25,936 nt of DNA from a virus. Taxonomy: Duplodnaviria; Heunggongvirae; Uroviricota; Caudoviricetes. Shown piece after piece: positions 1-21,599 of the stretch (its first letter is position 1; each line of letters starts with the position of its first letter). The stretch is taken from positions 1 through 25,936 of IMG/VR virus record IMGVR_UViG_2778261085_000012. One strand, 5' to 3'. A model generated the notes under the pieces. It searched no databases. It was not told the origin of the DNA and worked only from the letters and a program-made list of their open reading frames with translations. The translations under genes and the position numbers were made by a program.

Positions 1-570
1 CTATGCCGGAGGATATTTATTCATTCTTTCAGATATGTGAATGGAACGATTGTCGATTATATTTGTATCAAAAATAGTTACGGCAGGATGATTAAAACAG
101 ATAGAGTGTTTAGGTCTAAGTAAATGTAGTGTTTGCAATCTGGTTATCGCTGTGTTATCAAAATTTGAGAAGTCAACAACAAGATCTACATTCAGTTTTT
201 TTATCTTTGCTTTTAGTTCGTTAAATTTATTTTTCTCGTAAGATATAAAGGCATCCACGCCAACAATATCAGTAAAGAGGAATGATACTCTTGAAGGTGC
301 TATCACATATACCACCATACCGGATTTTTGAAGTTGTTTAATAAACCCTGAGGTAACGATGCCGTCACCAATGGCCTGCATGTGCATGAAAATGCACACT
401 GTTTTATAACTATCCGGCTGTAATGATGTTTTCCTTCTGTATCGCATTTTTAGAAATGCCAGTCTGGCCTTCGTCTTTATCTTTTTTGTTTTAATATTTC
501 GCTGTCTGTTAAGCTGTTTTAATGATGAAATAACATTCATAATGGTACCCTGAAATTCCAAATCACACAT
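1..570 (-). CDS. AT-rich cargo protein; resembles only the N-terminal domain of GT9 heptosyltransferase-type glycosyltransferases (possibly truncated)
   Basis: ORF 1..600 ends with a stop at 1-3; first codon of the track ORF appears to be TTG, first ATG about 570, start uncertain. Segment KTVCIFMHMQAIGDGIVTSGFIKQLQ...VVYVIAPS has the layout of a GT9 N-terminal Rossmann domain. GC content far below neighbouring phage genes. Occupies the P2 Z/fun cargo slot downstream of G. Confidence 0.4.
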   Translation of the reverse strand: MCDLEFQGTIMNVISSLKQLNRQRNIKTKKIKTKARLAFLKMRYRRKTSLQPDSYKTVCIFMHMQAIGDGIVTSGFIKQLQKSGMVVYVIAPSRVSFLFTDIVGVDAFISYEKNKFNELKAKIKKLNVDLVVDFSNFDNTAITRLQTLHLLRPKHSICFNHPAVTIFDTNIIDNRSIHISERMNKYPPA

Positions 571-12533: not shown

Positions 12534-14285
12534 ATGATTCAGGACGCTTTTGTGCGCCAGCGTGCGCGGCAACTTTACTGGCAGGGTTATCCGCCCGCAG
12601 AAATATCACGTCTGATGGGAATAAACCCGAACACGATTTATGCGTGGAAAAAACGCGACCAGTGGGATGAAACACCACCCGTGCAGCGTGTCACGCAGTC
12701 CATCGATGCGCGCCTCATCCAGCTTACTGAAAAACAGAATAAAACAGGCGGTGACTTTAAGGAAATAGACCTGCTGACCCGGCAGCTTAAAAAGCTGCAT
12801 GATGGCCAGCCGGATGTGATGGCCGCAGGAAAGAAAGGCCGGGCGAAAAAACTCAAAAATCATTTCACGCCGGAACAGATTGCCGCACTGCGGGAAAAAA
12901 TCATCAGCAGGCTGGAGTGGCATCAGCGGGGCTGGTTTGACTCCCTGACCCTTTGCAGGGAAGCCGGGATACGTAACAGGATGATCCTGAAATCCCGACA
13001 GATTGGGGCGACCTGGTATTTTGCACAGGAAGCACTGCTGATGGCGCTGCGTGACGATGTGGCGCAACCTTACCAGCGTAACCAGATTTTTTTGTCTGCG
13101 TCGCGTCGTCAGGCGTTCCAGTTTAAAAGCATTATTCAGAAGGCCGCGGCTGAAGTTGATGTGGAGCTGAAAGGGGGCGATAAAATCATCCTCTCCAACG
13201 GCGCAGAGCTGCATTTTCTCGGCACTTCTGCTGCGTCGGCACAGTCCTATACGGGCAATTTTTATTTTGATGAATTTTTCTGGGTCAGTCGCTTTGCTGA
13301 ACTGCGCAAGGTGGCTGGCGCTATGGCAACCCTCAGCGGACTGCGGCGCACCTACTTCTCCACGCCATCCACCGAAACGCACGAGGCATACGCCTACTGG
13401 AACGGCGACCGCTGGAACGAGAAAAAGGCCTCGCATAAACGCCAGCGTTTTTCTGTGGACTGGAAAACGCTGCATAACGGGCTTATCTGCCCTGACCGGA
13501 CGTGGCGGCAAATTGTCACGCTGGAAGATGTGGTTAATCACGGCTGGAAACACACCGATATCGACGAAATTCGTGATGAAAACACCGAAGACGAGTTCCT
13601 CAATCTCTATATGTGTGAGTTTGTCCGCGAAGGGGAATCGGCATTTAACCTGAATATCCTGATTGGCTGCGGTGTTGACGGATACGACGACTGGAAAGAC
13701 TGGAAACCTTTTGCTCCCCGCCCGATGGGAAATCGTCCGGTATGGATTGGGTATGACGCAAACGGCAGCAGTGGCAACGGCGACAGCGGCGCTGTGTCCG
13801 TGGTGGTTCCTCCGGCTGTTCCTGGTGGCCGTTTTCGAACGGTGGAGACGCGACGCGTTCAGGGGCTGGAGTTTGAAGAACAGGCCAGAGTCATTGAAGA
13901 GTTCACGTGTCGCTACAACGTGGAACACATCGGCATTGATGTGACGGGCGGGAACGGGGAGGCTGTTTATCAGATAGTGAAACGGTTTTTCCCTGCTGCT
14001 ATTCCGTACACCTTCACGCTGTCATCAAAACGGTCGCTGGTACTGAAAATGCTGCAAATAATGCGTGCCGGGCGGTGGGAATACGATCGCGCCGAACGCG
14101 AACTGGTCGCGGCCTTTAACGCCGTGCGTAAGGTGAAAACACCGGGCGGCTTTATCACTTACGAAACGGACCGCGCGAGGGGGATCAGCCACGGCGACCT
14201 TGCGTGGGCGACCATGCTTGCTGTCATTAACGAACCAATTGGCGGCGAAGGAGAAAACGAGCGTTTCACGGTTATGGAGTTCTGA
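12534..14285 (+). CDS. P: terminase large (ATPase) subunit P
   Basis: 583 aa; RBS AGGGGGA; N-terminus MIQDAFVRQRARQLYWQGYPPAEISRLMGINPNTIYAWKKRDQWDE typical of P2-family terminase. Confidence 0.9.
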   Translation: MIQDAFVRQRARQLYWQGYPPAEISRLMGINPNTIYAWKKRDQWDETPPVQRVTQSIDARLIQLTEKQNKTGGDFKEIDLLTRQLKKLHDGQPDVMAAGKKGRAKKLKNHFTPEQIAALREKIISRLEWHQRGWFDSLTLCREAGIRNRMILKSRQIGATWYFAQEALLMALRDDVAQPYQRNQIFLSASRRQAFQFKSIIQKAAAEVDVELKGGDKIILSNGAELHFLGTSAASAQSYTGNFYFDEFFWVSRFAELRKVAGAMATLSGLRRTYFSTPSTETHEAYAYWNGDRWNEKKASHKRQRFSVDWKTLHNGLICPDRTWRQIVTLEDVVNHGWKHTDIDEIRDENTEDEFLNLYMCEFVREGESAFNLNILIGCGVDGYDDWKDWKPFAPRPMGNRPVWIGYDANGSSGNGDSGAVSVVVPPAVPGGRFRTVETRRVQGLEFEEQARVIEEFTCRYNVEHIGIDVTGGNGEAVYQIVKRFFPAAIPYTFTLSSKRSLVLKMLQIMRAGRWEYDRAERELVAAFNAVRKVKTPGGFITYETDRARGISHGDLAWATMLAVINEPIGGEGENERFTVMEF

Positions 14286-15331
14286 TGAGCAGAAAAAATA
14301 AAAAAGTGCGCATGAGTTCACGCATTGATCTCGCTGATGCGCTCAGGAAAGAATCATCGCTCAGTGCATTCACATTTGATGGTCCTTATCGCCTGACCGG
14401 GCATGACCTGCTGGACAATATGTACTGTGCTGATAACGGGCGGTGGTATGAAACCCCGGTGGACTGGTACGGTCTGGCAAGAGCTGCCCGGCAAACGTCC
14501 TGGCATCAGTCTGCGCTTTACTTTAAGCGCAATGTATTACTCGGTTGCTACATCCCGCACCCGCTGCTTTCCCGGCAGGATTTCTCGGCGCTGGCGCTGG
14601 ACTGGTTTGTGTTCGGTAACGCATTCCTTGAGCTTCGAAGCAATATGCTCGGCGAACCGCTTAAATTACGGCACGCCCTGGCGAAATACATGCGACGCGG
14701 AAGCGATCTTGAATCATGGTGGTATGTGCAGGATGGCAAGGACGCGTTCCAGTTTCGCCCTGGCAAAGTGTGCCACCTGATGAATCCGGATATTAACCAG
14801 GAAATCTACGGCATGCCGGAATATCTCGGCGCATTACTCTCGGCCAGCCTGTCTCATTCGGCGGACATGTTCAGAAAACTGTATTACGACAACGGATCCC
14901 ACGCCGGGTGCATCATCTACATCGGTGCAGCGCAGGTAAACCGCGAAAGCATGGACTCCCTGAAAGAAACGTTACAGGGTGCACGTGGTGGTGGTGCGTT
15001 TAAAAACGTGCTCATTCATGCGCCCAACGGGGGCAAAGAGGGGGTGCAAATTTTGCCGTTCCAGCAGATCACCGCAAAGGATGAGTTCATGAATGTTAAG
15101 GCGGCATCCCGTGATGATGTGCTGGCTGCGCACCGTGTCCCGCCGCAACTGATGGGGGCGATGCCGGGTGAAAAAAGTGCGTTTGGTGATGTGGAGAAGG
15201 CCGCGCGGGTTTACGCAATTAACGAGCTGATGCCCGTCATGGAGGCCATGAAGCACATCAATGACTGGCTTGGCGAAGAGGTGATCCGCTTTAACCCTTA
15301 TGCACTGCTGGACACCCAGCCCACATCCTGA
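14285..15331 (+). CDS. Q: portal protein Q
   Basis: 348 aa; start MSRKNKKVR overlaps the P stop (TGATG); size and position as P2 gpQ. Confidence 0.9.
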   Translation: MSRKNKKVRMSSRIDLADALRKESSLSAFTFDGPYRLTGHDLLDNMYCADNGRWYETPVDWYGLARAARQTSWHQSALYFKRNVLLGCYIPHPLLSRQDFSALALDWFVFGNAFLELRSNMLGEPLKLRHALAKYMRRGSDLESWWYVQDGKDAFQFRPGKVCHLMNPDINQEIYGMPEYLGALLSASLSHSADMFRKLYYDNGSHAGCIIYIGAAQVNRESMDSLKETLQGARGGGAFKNVLIHAPNGGKEGVQILPFQQITAKDEFMNVKAASRDDVLAAHRVPPQLMGAMPGEKSAFGDVEKAARVYAINELMPVMEAMKHINDWLGEEVIRFNPYALLDTQPTS

Positions 15332-15385: not shown

Positions 15386-15784
15386 CTCCAGCTCCTGTAT
15401 CAGTCAGATAATTTCACGACGCTTTCCTGCTTATTGCCATCATCGACGGTCAGACTCTTACGCAATCCCACCGCGTTAACTGCATGTTCTCGCCGCCTCA
15501 GTGCGATTTTGACGGCCTTACCTTTCACCCCATCAAATCAAAAGCCCTCACGTCTTTTTCACGCTCAGCGTGAGAAATACAGCCATTCTGTTGTGTTGCT
15601 GCGACATCGTTCAGGGGATGCTATTTACCCCCTGAAACGCGGGCTGTTCCCCCGTCACCTGCGCGCAGAAAAAGCGCGTTTTTTTGTGCACGTACGGATC
15701 CTTGACGGATCCAGCCACCACGCGGGCCGGAAGTACAAAAAGTCGTTCAAAAAAATTGTGCAAACTTGTGCACTATCGTGCAAA

Positions 15785-15815
15785 CAAAAAAAAGCGCCTT
15801 ATCGGCGCTTCAAAA
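15785..15815 (-). terminator. Rho-independent terminator (minus strand)
   Basis: On the minus strand: AAGCGCC gataa GGCGCTT followed by a T9 run; sits just 3' of the 15819..16088 ORF. Confidence 0.6.
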
Positions 15816-15818
15816 GTA

Positions 15819-16088
15819 TCAATTGTTGCTGTGTATTAATCGCCAACCACGAACATATGCTTCATAGGCATCTCTGTGCCTTACAGTTCCAGCCTGGCTA
15901 AACGGAATGTTAGCTAAAACTAAATCATTCTGAGCCATAGCGCGTCCTTCAAGCGCATCTTTTATGCCTAGCTCAAAAGCACAGGCAGCGCATTTGTGCC
16001 GACCTTCTTGTCCTTGATATTCAGGGAGAGACAGAAATGTTGGGTTATAACGATGAGGGTTCTTGCAAATACCTGTTTTAGCCCGCAC
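15819..16088 (-). CDS. hypothetical 89-aa Cys/His-containing protein in the cargo slot
   Basis: GTG start preceded by GAGGT; intrinsic terminator directly downstream; contains CxxxH...HxCxxC. Overlaps a probably spurious plus-strand ORF. Confidence 0.35.
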   Translation of the reverse strand: MRAKTGICKNPHRYNPTFLSLPEYQGQEGRHKCAACAFELGIKDALEGRAMAQNDLVLANIPFSQAGTVRHRDAYEAYVRGWRLIHSNN

Positions 16089-16111
16089 TTTATTTACCTC
16101 ATAGGAAAAAT

Positions 16112-16250
16112 ATGCGTGCCTTTACAGAGGTGCGTGTAAGCAATAAAATATACGACGCACATTTTGATTTACTTCGGAAGGCACGCATATCAGGTTAAGT
16201 GAGTCCGACCGAGTTTTACGCCCCAATAGTTGCTGCTATTGGGGCGTTTT
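16112..16250 (+). other. candidate small transcript (sRNA or 28-aa peptide) ending in an intrinsic terminator
   Basis: Promoter-like TTTACA-N17-TAAAAT; 13-bp long-range inverted repeat ATATGCGTGCCTT/AAGGCACGCATAT; possible 28-codon ORF with RBS AGGA; terminator hairpin at the 3' end. Confidence 0.25.
16219..16250 (+). terminator. Rho-independent terminator (plus strand)
   Basis: CGCCCCAATAG ttgctg CTATTGGGGCG followed by TTTT. Confidence 0.6.
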
Positions 16251-16452
16251 GCATGGACAATGCCGCGCAATTATCTTGTCGCTCACAATGCGAACGATCT
16301 TACAAAAAGGCACATTACTGTCAAGATAATTGATCGTTTTAATCGATAGATAATATACAATCTATTTGTTTAACAGATCGATTATTGAAGTAAGTGTGCC
16401 AAATGGAATGATACTGTTTCTATAAACGTGAGCATTTTTCGCGCAGATGCTT

Positions 16453-16764
16453 TTACTCAGGAAATAACGCCCGGATATTCCCAGCCATCTGGCTGGTTAT
16501 TTTAGCCACTGGTGCAGACTGTGCTTCAAACTTTTTTGAGCTGATTTGTGTCACAGGTAACATCTCATCATCAGCCCATGCGGCCAGTCGGTAAGCCTCT
16601 GCCGGATTCGTCTTCAGAAGTGCCAGCCCGGCCAGAAAAGCCACGCGTTGGCCGCTTTTGCGGGCTTCTGGTGTAAGGCTGTCCAGCCAGGCGCATGCTT
16701 CTCCTTCGTTCTTGACGGCAGCTGGCTTCAGATAGAAACTTATCCGTCTGGTTGGTGTCGTCAT
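16453..16764 (-). CDS. parR: ParR-like centromere-binding protein (plasmid R1 ParR/StbB family)
   Basis: 103 aa; RRISFYLKP...AWLDSLTPEARKSGQRVAFLAGLALLKTNP parallels the R1 ParR N-terminal region; located immediately downstream of the ParM-like gene. Confidence 0.65.
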   Translation of the reverse strand: MTTPTRRISFYLKPAAVKNEGEACAWLDSLTPEARKSGQRVAFLAGLALLKTNPAEAYRLAAWADDEMLPVTQISSKKFEAQSAPVAKITSQMAGNIRALFPE

Positions 16765-16768
16765 TGGT

Positions 16769-17728
16769 TTACTCCTTGTTCATTGCGTACAGCCCATTAA
16801 CCAGAGCAAACTGTGGCACCCCGTCCGCGATGAAAGTCGCATTAACTCCGCAGGCTTCGCGGATAGCGGGTGCCACAATCTCCGCTCCTCCACCGACAAC
16901 CATCACCCGCCCGTAACCCGAAAAACCCGCCAGCGCGCGGATCACGCGTTGTTTCAGTGTTTCCTCCTTTTCACGAATAACTGCCATCAGGCTGGCGTAA
17001 TGCGCGTCATTGTGGATGTGCTGGCGCAGCCAGGCTTCATCGTGGCGATGTTCGATAATGGTACTGGCGATGTGGTGACTGGTGCGCATACCGTTGGTGG
17101 CCATCACCGACAGCACGGCATCGGCCATCAGAGAAACGCCTACGTGTGGATCGCAAAACACCTGGCTGATACCTGCCAGTTGCCCCTGAACCTTTGCCAC
17201 ATCCAGCGTGGTTCCGCCCAAATCCACAATCAGCAGGGATTCAAACGGACTCATGCCAGCCAGTGCTTTAAAGCCAGCCGGAATGGATTCAGGCATAACC
17301 CGCACGTTACGGATAGTGAATGCCTCGCCGTTCTGGTACTCCACCGGGCGCATGACGTTCGCTTTTTTGCGGTTGATGTTGGCCATGTCCGGCTGTGCGT
17401 TTGTGTCGAAATACTCGCTCAGTGGCAGGGTGACAACCACATCCACTTCCTGTGGTGTGATACCTGATTTGACCAGCGCATGATGAATGGCAATCACATT
17501 CACATCGCTGTACTGGTATTGCGTGTCAGTTGTCTGAACAAAGCGATCGCTGACCGGATCAAAATCATAGCGCACGCCATCAATCATGTAGTTTGCGGGT
17601 TGCGTGCCACCGAACGGCGCAGACCATTCCGACTTGAAGCTGTTCGGGCTGATGGCGTTGCGACGTTCGCCGTTCTCAGTCCATGCCAGCTTGATGTTGG
17701 TGGAGCCGTCGTCGATACAAATTTTCAT
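16769..17728 (-). CDS. parM: ParM/StbA-like actin-family ATPase
   Basis: 319 aa; MKICIDDGSTNIKLAW..., YSDVNVIAIHHAL, MPESIPAG, LIVDLGGTTLD and VMVVGGGAE are collinear with plasmid R1 ParM. Confidence 0.85.
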   Translation of the reverse strand: MKICIDDGSTNIKLAWTENGERRNAISPNSFKSEWSAPFGGTQPANYMIDGVRYDFDPVSDRFVQTTDTQYQYSDVNVIAIHHALVKSGITPQEVDVVVTLPLSEYFDTNAQPDMANINRKKANVMRPVEYQNGEAFTIRNVRVMPESIPAGFKALAGMSPFESLLIVDLGGTTLDVAKVQGQLAGISQVFCDPHVGVSLMADAVLSVMATNGMRTSHHIASTIIEHRHDEAWLRQHIHNDAHYASLMAVIREKEETLKQRVIRALAGFSGYGRVMVVGGGAEIVAPAIREACGVNATFIADGVPQFALVNGLYAMNKE

Positions 17729-17759: not shown

Positions 17760-17870
17760 TTTACGGGATTCTGAAATCCCGTTTTTGCCTGTTTTGTGTG
17801 CGCTTCATATATCGCGGCGCGTTTTTTGCTCATTTACGGGATTTGTGAATCCCGTTTCTGTCTGTTTTTT
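17760..17870. repeat. two copies of an approx. 40-bp repeat, each with a perfect hairpin, spaced about 71 bp
   Basis: TTTACGGGATTcTGAAATCCCGTTTtTGcCTGTTTT and TTTACGGGATTtGTGAATCCCGTTTcTGtCTGTTTT; copy 1 is in the A/parM intergenic region, copy 2 is inside the A 3' end. Confidence 0.7.
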
Positions 17871-21302: not shown

Positions 21303-21486
21303 GACGTGGCCTCGTGTATAGTAAGTTTTGAAAACTCACCATCCAGAGTTGAGAATCTCGGGGTGGCGAGACGTACGGGGTTCTCAACACCGGCTACACA
21401 CGATCCCGGCCCGACCGAAGTCGGCCCCGTACGCCCCGCCATAATTCTGACGCGAAAAAGACGTGGCAATACAGTACGCACAAAAA

Positions 21487-21502
21487 AACCGCTGGCGCGG
21501 TT
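21487..21502 (-). terminator. candidate intrinsic terminator (minus strand) inside the early operon
   Basis: On the minus strand: AACCGC gcca GCGGTT followed by T7; short 6-bp GC-rich stem. Confidence 0.35.
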
Positions 21503-21599
21503 GTGCGCGTGTGTAGTCAGCGGGTTGAGAATCCCGGCACCCGTTTTATGAGGTGCAGCGGAAATGTAACCCGACTCAACGAGCGCTGGCAAGCGGTTT

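Follow-up and report, generated by a model that had tools for sequence, protein, structure and literature searches.

A conserved folded mRNA leader and a predicted cis-antisense RNA upstream of an 89-residue cargo gene in P2-like prophages

Judged by comparison with distant homologous loci, the segment at positions 16100–16250 of the window (the whole 25,936-nucleotide stretch analysed here, IMG/VR record IMGVR_UViG_2778261085_000012) is part of a conserved, folded 5′ leader of a minus-strand cargo gene for an 89-residue protein, and this gene is probably controlled by a short antisense RNA from the opposite strand. We assign a probability of about 0.6 to the reading in which leader and cis-antisense RNA form the control region of a cargo cassette that makes two RNAs and in which the cargo protein is repressed. 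The comparison reveals conserved promoters, covarying helices and strand asymmetries, and no conserved open reading frame on the antisense strand.

Results

The prophage locus

The prophage in the window is P2-like (Peduoviridae, Xuanwuvirus-type), with E. coli as host. To the left of the locus, the plus strand carries the terminase (12534–14285) and portal (14285–15331) genes, followed by the cos-proximal region. The minus strand holds, in order, the 89-residue ORF (15819–16088), a 364-bp intergenic region, parR (16453–16764; Pfam Plasmid_stab_B), parM (16769–17728), and the replication gene gpA. Positions 16100–16250 sit in the gpA–gpQ cargo hotspot, with parMR on one side and the 89-residue gene on the other; the wider region is bounded by parR/parM and the portal gene. 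The gpA–gpQ interval is a P2 hotspot for accessory and defence genes, and about one quarter of P2-like phages carry a partition system in it (PMC9122126). The same DNA is present at ≥95% identity in 166 of 5426 complete E. coli genomes, and the intergenic region is without annotation in all genomes among the matches listed. One carrier is ETEC H10407 (NC_017633.1, 2141198–2141561). With blastn, this region matched no plasmid, and among phages only near-identical Xuanwuvirus records. The features of the locus (window positions, strand) are:

15791–15811, minus: intrinsic terminator of the cargo gene, a GC stem followed by T8 (terminator scan), judged strong
15819–16088, minus: 89-residue cargo gene, GTG start, GAGG at 16100..16097, 8 nt before the GTG; phrog_3941
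16089–16290, minus: structured 5′ leader of the cargo mRNA, about 200 nt (fold z −3.6; matched by covariance model R1; architecture common to the leader types)
16110–16122, minus: 3′ arm of helix P2, overlapping TGTAAAG and ending 9 nt before the Shine-Dalgarno sequence (repeat scan, duplex search, and folding)
16112–16198, plus: 28-codon ORF, judged not to be a gene
16121–16149, plus: predicted antisense promoter TTTACA-17-TAAAAT (promoter scan, conserved geometry); its −35 is the complement of the invariant leader TGTAAA
16130–16160, minus: inner hairpin P3 (GTGCGT / ACGCAC) from minimum-free-energy structures, holding the antisense −10 and start site
16156–16251, plus: predicted cis-antisense small RNA, about 95 nt, both ends placed from the promoter and hairpin H1
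16178–16190, minus: 5′ arm of P2, inside the antisense-covered region (duplex z −5.2 against shuffles)
16218–16247, either strand: hairpin H1, a GC-rich 12-bp stem with a 6-nt loop, proposed terminator of the antisense RNA (plus strand) and also a hairpin in the sense leader
16248–16251, plus: short U tract TTTT after H1, the first T of which can pair; below the scan threshold
16297..16324, minus: predicted sense sigma-70 promoter TTGACA-16-TAAGAT (promoter scan, 10 of 12 matches), pointing through the region towards the cargo gene

Several further elements lie nearby. Two copies of a palindromic unit, TTTACGGGATT-N4-AATCCCGTTT, are found at 17760–17786 and 17833–17859, just upstream of parM and within the 3′ end of gpA; they are likely a parC centromere or ParR operator serving the partition system of the prophage. 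An AT-rich imperfect palindrome with GATC sites (16326–16385; 26-nt arms, 73% complementary), placed between parR and the sense promoter, is kept in the type B loci L041 and L042 and absent outside P2-like phages. Elsewhere in the prophage, Rfam models matched at gathering level on the minus strand for C4 antisense RNA (RF01695, 21359–21446), isrK (21482–21556), and IS009 (693–891), matches that are consistent with an immunity module of the P1/P7 C4 type in the prophage.

The 89-residue cargo protein

The sequence evidence indicates that the 89-residue ORF is a real gene. Its product matched phrog_3941 (E 6e-49) as the only hit in PHROGs, and nothing in Pfam, PADLOC, or NCBIfam. A single-sequence protein search first gave two matches, and an alignment-based search was needed for the rest; it returned 1354 homologous clusters at 90% identity, every one named hypothetical, with no Pfam domain among them. 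C8, H12, C33, C36, R30, H31, and R70 are invariant among the homologues, and the product is a small basic protein that probably binds zinc. The sequence is basic and hydrophilic, lacks any hydrophobic stretch, and is confidently modelled by AF2 as a helical, soluble-looking fold (mean pLDDT 83). Structural and profile searches gave no significant neighbours. Foldseek ranked ribosome modulation factor, entry 2jrm, first among the PDB matches of the model (E 1.7; TM on the target, 0.52). Two R-H-K...A-x-x-G-Y-like repeats are present in the protein, and comparing its profile with that of E. coli RMF gave no significant match.

Homologous genes occur in P2-like phages, in a P22-like phage after cI, and in Providencia phages beside the lysis genes. 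In the P22-like Salmonella phage BIS08P22 (3614–3859 of locus L123), the cassette follows the cI repressor gene after one small ORF, at the position held by rexAB in lambda, and scores 129.9 bits against model R1. In the E. coli genomes L041 and L042, RefSeq/PGAP has left out a homologue of 92 residues. Downstream of it, the type B cassette of these genomes (2117–2395 and 1763–2050, both minus) has another small gene, of 95 residues, without a family match. In Bacteroidota (Bacteroidales, Capnocytophaga), the homologous gene or domain lies within DpnII-type GATC restriction-modification operons (L038 3007–3846, L040 2956–3267, L124 4001–4267), in the order D12 methylase, DpnII endonuclease, homologous gene, and N6_N4 methylase. 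L038 has a single, fused 603-residue ORF for the D12 methylase and DpnII domains, and its homologous gene carries an additional fused C-terminal domain of roughly 190 residues.

A conserved leader architecture in unrelated sequences

Homologues were taken from viral, genome, and metagenome contigs, together with the divergent E. coli prophages L041 and L042, and the DNA upstream of each start codon was extracted for comparison. The proteins are only 50–64% identical and come from different phage backgrounds, and the upstream regions have the same architecture in unrelated primary sequence. At least seven leader sequence types can be distinguished, A (the window) and B to G. Read in the orientation of the gene, the order is promoter, purine motif, GC-rich H1, A-rich linker, P2 5′ arm, P3, TGTAAAG, P2 3′ arm, and Shine-Dalgarno sequence, the last often inside a small hairpin, P4. 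TGTAAA is invariant and located just before the ribosome-binding site; between types, only TGTAAAG is common and the remaining core differs completely. Unpaired core nucleotides conserved in all members, as expected of a riboswitch or ligand-sensing leader, were not found.

A promoter of the form TTGAnn-16..18-TAnnAT is present in all leader types, with the −10 ending 167–236 nt before the start codon and GATC beside the −35 and at the −10. In the window, such GATC sites fall within 16296–16335: one overlaps the sense −10 and another is found about 10 nt upstream of the −35. Sense transcription is predicted to start near 16290. The recurrence of GATC beside the sense −35 and over the sense −10 extends in types C to F to the inside of the antisense promoter. 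Over the promoters and leaders of the phage types, 33 GATC sites are observed and 9.2 expected, and this 3.6-fold enrichment suggests Dam-dependent control of the promoters. An 11-bp perfect inverted repeat, CAATTATCTTG / CAAGATAATTG (16268–16278 and 16322–16332), brackets the sense −35 and positions +12 to +22 of the leader, and may be an operator.

Covariation of the leader helices

R1, a covariance model for which only types D and E were used (alignment A2), locates types B, C, and F correctly in position and strand (E 1e-5 to 1e-7), and with filters off matches the minus strand of the window at 16091–16250 (22.5 bits, E 3e-5). In a further alignment (A4), 90.5% of cells pair, compared with 77% in shuffles and 34–45% with the partner slid. 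For covariation, the score of 0.333 exceeds those of shuffles (0.124) and of slid partners (0.03–0.07), and none of 500 shuffles reach the observed value. Nineteen pairs have changed on both sides, including 10 of 12 in H1 and 6 of 14 in P2. Compensatory changes above controls, the general mark of a conserved structured RNA, are thus seen on A4, an alignment that was fitted to the model and so favours the structure tested.

As for P2, an independent duplex search anchored on TGTAAA alone recovers the helix in the same place, formed by four different sequences, and an equivalent helix of different sequence is found in types B, C, D, and E. Duplex z-scores of −5 to −6 were obtained for types A and B, with weaker values for C to E. 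In the window, P2 corresponds to the inverted repeat ATATGCGTGCCTT / AAGGCACGCATAT at 16110–16122 and 16178–16190, which the first-pass annotation had listed; it is real, 13 bp long and perfect, and by our own estimate a perfect 13-bp repeat within 150 bp has a chance expectation of about 1e-4. The repeat had been counted as part of a plus-strand unit. A wobble count of 57 G.U to 15 A.C indicates instead that P2 forms on the sense, minus-strand RNA, and the repeat is therefore better described as a long-range stem of the cargo mRNA leader. P4, which pairs the Shine-Dalgarno sequence with an anti-Shine-Dalgarno segment, shows a compensatory change from GCAC/GUGC to GCGC/GCGC, and in type C the pairing of P2 takes in UGUAA itself. 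A single switch, common to all types, between P2 and occlusion of the ribosome-binding site was rejected, as thermodynamic folding gave predictions that were not consistent from type to type.

Hairpin H1 and its strand-asymmetric flanks

H1 is the most variable segment of the leader, with 54% pairwise identity compared with 81–83% in the core, yet it is always a hairpin. Its stem is conserved by covariation and has an energy of −20.6 to −22.7 kcal/mol. Variation in sequence with retention of the hairpin is the pattern expected of a specificity or terminator element. The wobble pairs of H1 show no clear asymmetry after the outermost pair, where most A.C cells lie, is set aside. The flanks are asymmetric in all types: the 8 nt after H1 contain about 4 T on the antisense strand, which is U- or pyrimidine-rich, and about 0.7 T on the sense strand, which is A-rich. 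The antisense tail begins with TTTTTT in type G2 (L121) and is similar in G1 by direct reading of the sequence, is interrupted by C in types C to E, and has 3–4 U in the window.

In the window, the hairpin had been described as a strong intrinsic terminator with a 10-bp stem. The hairpin is present and its arms comprise 12 bp (16218–16229 and 16236–16247), and strong is not the appropriate term, as the plus-strand tail GTTTTGCA offers only 3–4 U and the hairpin was left unflagged by the terminator scan because the U tract is too short (threshold, 5 T in 8). H1 in the window is a sub-canonical terminator, weak by rule. A role as terminator of parMR was rejected, given that H1 is downstream of the sense promoter, shows no U tail when read on the minus strand, and is also found where parMR is absent. 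Between close relatives, the H1 loop tip is found reverse-complemented (CGGCAA and TTGCCG in L086 and L085; CGTCAA and TTGACG in L104 and L107), differences that amount to inversions of the hairpin tip.

The predicted antisense promoter and small RNA

The plus-strand promoter-like sequence TTTACA-17-TAAAAT reported in the first-pass annotation is present and matches at 10 of 12 positions. By itself, within the window, it is no more than expected by chance, since two promoter-like sites are found in the region and 2.2 are expected from shuffles. Across the leader types the situation is different: on the antisense strand of all seven types, TTTACA is followed at 17 nt (18 nt in one) by an xAxxxT hexamer, as TAAAAT, TACGAT, TAGACT, TAATCT, TAGTAT, CACAAT (with an extended −10 TG), or TACAAT, and the spacers are unrelated among types. 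The background frequencies in the same sequences are 0.072 for xAxxxT and 0.015 for TAxxxT, and because the leader types share ancestry, chance calculations for the −10 are only approximate. No other promoter-like site was flagged in the leaders of L117 and L121. As a hold-out test, 80 metagenome loci were fetched afterwards. In every held-out leader with TGTAAA at −35 to −40, a hexamer of this form again follows at 17 nt; the spacers are new, and TACTCT is an addition to the hexamers listed above. Two leaders (L191 and L200) have TTGCAA-17-TACAAT in place of TTTACA, so that the RNA motif is altered and the −35 is kept.

Taken together, the conserved promoter geometry, the strand-asymmetric tails of H1, and the variability of H1 make a plus-strand RNA that spans roughly 16156–16251 the most economical reading, and we predict such a transcript. 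It would be complementary to the leader throughout, by construction, from within P3 through the P2 5′ arm and H1, and it is predicted to fold with −34.3 kcal/mol (z −4.2). A promoter of its own opposite a transcribed target, as in a cis-encoded antisense RNA, is represented here by the predicted promoter inside the leader. An Rfam 15 search, which had been proposed as a check and included C4, sar, ctRNA, Spot 42, and isrK, gave no gathering-level match in 15700–16500 or in seven related loci. The best sub-threshold scores (bits, with the gathering cut-off) were ctRNA_pGA1 22.1 (45), sar 22 (43), and Spot_42 19.4 (80), and the sar and ctRNA_pGA1 matches come from the H1 hairpin only. In the literature, we found nothing on transcripts of this locus. 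STnc6030 of Salmonella BTP1 was considered as a precedent and set aside, since this antisense RNA is unrelated, exceeds 700 nt, and lies in late genes.

The 28-codon open reading frame

With small corrections, all elements in the first-pass annotation are present, and what does not hold is their arrangement as one compact plus-strand unit. Both the start of the ORF (16112) and the left arm of the repeat (16110–16122) are upstream of or overlap the −35 (16121–16126), and a transcript starting at about 16156 would therefore contain neither. That annotation had also passed over the minus-strand gene at 15819–16088 and the minus-strand promoter TTGACA-16-TAAGAT (16324..16297), and with them the antisense relation of the unit to the leader of the neighbouring gene. 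Of its two interpretations, the candidate small RNA is borne out by comparison, through promoter geometry kept in seven types and in held-out loci, a hairpin kept by compensatory change, and a U- or pyrimidine-rich tail on the plus strand only. The other interpretation, a micro-protein or type I toxin-like peptide of 28 residues from 16112–16198, we find scarcely credible. The ORF does exist, with AGGA 5 nt before the ATG; its start codon, however, precedes the only plus-strand promoter. It is also not conserved: types C1, E3, and F have no antisense-strand ORF of at least 15 residues at this position, and elsewhere the peptides are unrelated and in other frames, the type B peptide having only the first two residues, MR, in common with that of the window. 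The 28-residue peptide is not hydrophobic and has no match in PHROGs, and AGGAAAAA is accounted for as the complement of UUUUUCCU, which precedes the sense-strand Shine-Dalgarno sequence. A frame and peptide conserved in relatives and enclosed in a transcript, as expected of a micro-protein, were thus not found, and the ORF was rejected as a gene.

Discussion

Proposed mechanism

Based on these observations, we propose that the P2-like prophage carries a self-contained cassette of promoter, leader, 89-residue gene, and terminator, from which two RNAs would be made. The minus-strand cargo mRNA would begin near 16290 from the GATC-flanked sigma-70 promoter, and its leader of about 200 nt would form H1 and the long-range helix P2, closing just upstream of the ribosome-binding site. 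The plus-strand antisense RNA of about 95 nt would start at about 16156 from the promoter embedded in the leader and end at about 16251, after H1. Its most likely action would be to pair with the leader, including the P2 5′ arm, and thereby repress the cargo protein. Pairing could expose the duplex to RNase III, or remodel P2 so that the freed 3′ arm occludes the start region, or both, and with the convergent promoters 134 bp apart transcriptional interference could contribute as well. When the antisense-covered segment is blocked in silico, the accessibility of the start codon or the Shine-Dalgarno sequence is lower in 9 of 13 leaders, and in the remaining leaders the rise in either measure is at most 0.09. 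Because alternative pairings differ by type, and the Shine-Dalgarno sequence is partly paired while P2 is formed in the minimum-free-energy fold of type A, the direction and mechanism of regulation are, like the existence and exact ends of both RNAs and the function of the protein, what we infer from the conserved patterns.

Alternative readings

A somewhat unlikely alternative is that the region acts only as a cis-regulatory mRNA leader, with translation controlled by the 89-residue protein, a host factor, temperature, or a ligand. In that case TGTAAA would be an RNA motif and not the complement of a promoter, and H1 a stabilising or processing hairpin of the mRNA. The G.U count makes P2 specific to the sense RNA, the compensatory changes in P4 and the pairing of UGUAA within P2 in type C point the same way, and the small, basic, putatively zinc-binding product could bind the leader of its own mRNA, by analogy with Com of phage Mu. 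Such a leader would, however, leave unexplained why xAxxxT recurs at exactly 17–18 nt across unrelated spacers, why a substitution to TTGCAA preserves the −35 character, and why the tail of H1 is U-rich on one strand. The core nucleotides other than TGTAAAG also vary between types, unlike those of riboswitch aptamers, and no Rfam riboswitch matched.

Improbable to a greater degree is an action at the level of DNA, in which the inverted repeats are repressor operators and H1 insulates parMR from plus-strand read-through, with no dedicated small RNA. The perfect 11-bp repeat around the sense promoter would suit this reading, as would the GATC clusters at both promoters, which suggest control by Dam or a protein; the G.U excess in P2, meaningless in duplex DNA, argues for RNA pairing, and H1 and P2 accompany the 89-residue gene into contexts without parMR. 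Moreover, the arm sequences are wholly different between types, yet the candidate binding protein is 55–64% identical. Chance co-occurrence in AT-rich intergenic DNA would agree with a promoter-like count no higher than in shuffles, but is effectively refuted by the comparative data: perfect repeats of 13 bp and 12 bp within 150 bp are each unlikely, and the whole architecture is kept through compensatory change in distant homologues. Control by leader and cis-antisense RNA remains the reading that we prefer. A more far-reaching version of it, which we offer as speculation and consider unlikely, is that the cassette is an undescribed mobile module of temperate phages, in which Dam-methylated GATC sites at convergent promoters and an antisense RNA with a hypervariable hairpin time a burst of a new zinc-binding family; the protein, whose homologues in Bacteroidota belong to DpnII-type operons, may then be tied to GATC restriction-modification, as an anti-restriction protein, a controller-like factor of such systems, or a translation-targeting toxin.

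If the preferred reading is true, an unannotated regulatory RNA pair (leader and antisense RNA), absent from Rfam, serves a widespread protein family (1354 clusters). The sites of this family, the P2 gpA–gpQ hotspot, beside cI in a P22-like phage, and beside the lysis genes in Providencia phages, are classic positions for cargo expressed in lysogens. Tight antisense control, GATC-rich promoters, and the DpnII restriction-modification operons in Bacteroidota would provide handles on the role of the protein. For annotation some caution is called for, since PGAP misses the gene in some genomes (L041 and L042) and never annotates the RNA.

Comparison with known systems

Long folded leaders are known from the type I toxin-antitoxin loci hok/sok, tisB/istR-1, zorO/orzO, and symE/symR. 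As in these systems, a small gene of a mobile element has its own promoter, a leader of about 200 nt, and long-range pairing near the ribosome-binding site, and a short antisense RNA (60–100 nt), predicted in the present case, comes from a promoter inside or next to the leader. The cargo product differs from the short hydrophobic membrane peptides of these loci in being an 89-residue hydrophilic, basic protein with a Cys/His cluster, the antisense RNA would cover the upstream leader and not the ribosome-binding site, and neither sequence nor Rfam models link the cassette to these families.

In IS10, a Dam-sensitive, GATC-bearing sense promoter for RNA-IN faces an internal antisense promoter for RNA-OUT, a hairpin RNA of about 70 nt, and the logic is a burst of expression on new or hemimethylated DNA followed by shut-off. 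A GATC-bearing sense promoter facing an internal antisense promoter is also what we predict here. RNA-OUT pairs at the start codon region of the transposase mRNA; the predicted RNA would instead pair with a leader that precedes a phage cargo gene, and it is GATC enrichment that suggests Dam dependence here. The antisense RNAs sar of P22, OOP of lambda, and C4 of P1/P7 are likewise short antisense RNAs of temperate phages, acting in cis or in trans, with an intrinsic terminator at the end, and differ from the RNA predicted here in target gene and position, with no match to their models.

A type I toxin is small (usually <60 residues) and a hydrophobic membrane peptide or a demonstrated toxin; at 89 residues and with its hydrophilic sequence, the cargo protein does not have this feature, and we therefore class the leader and its antisense RNA as a new family within a known kind, cis-antisense RNAs that control a cargo gene of a mobile element.
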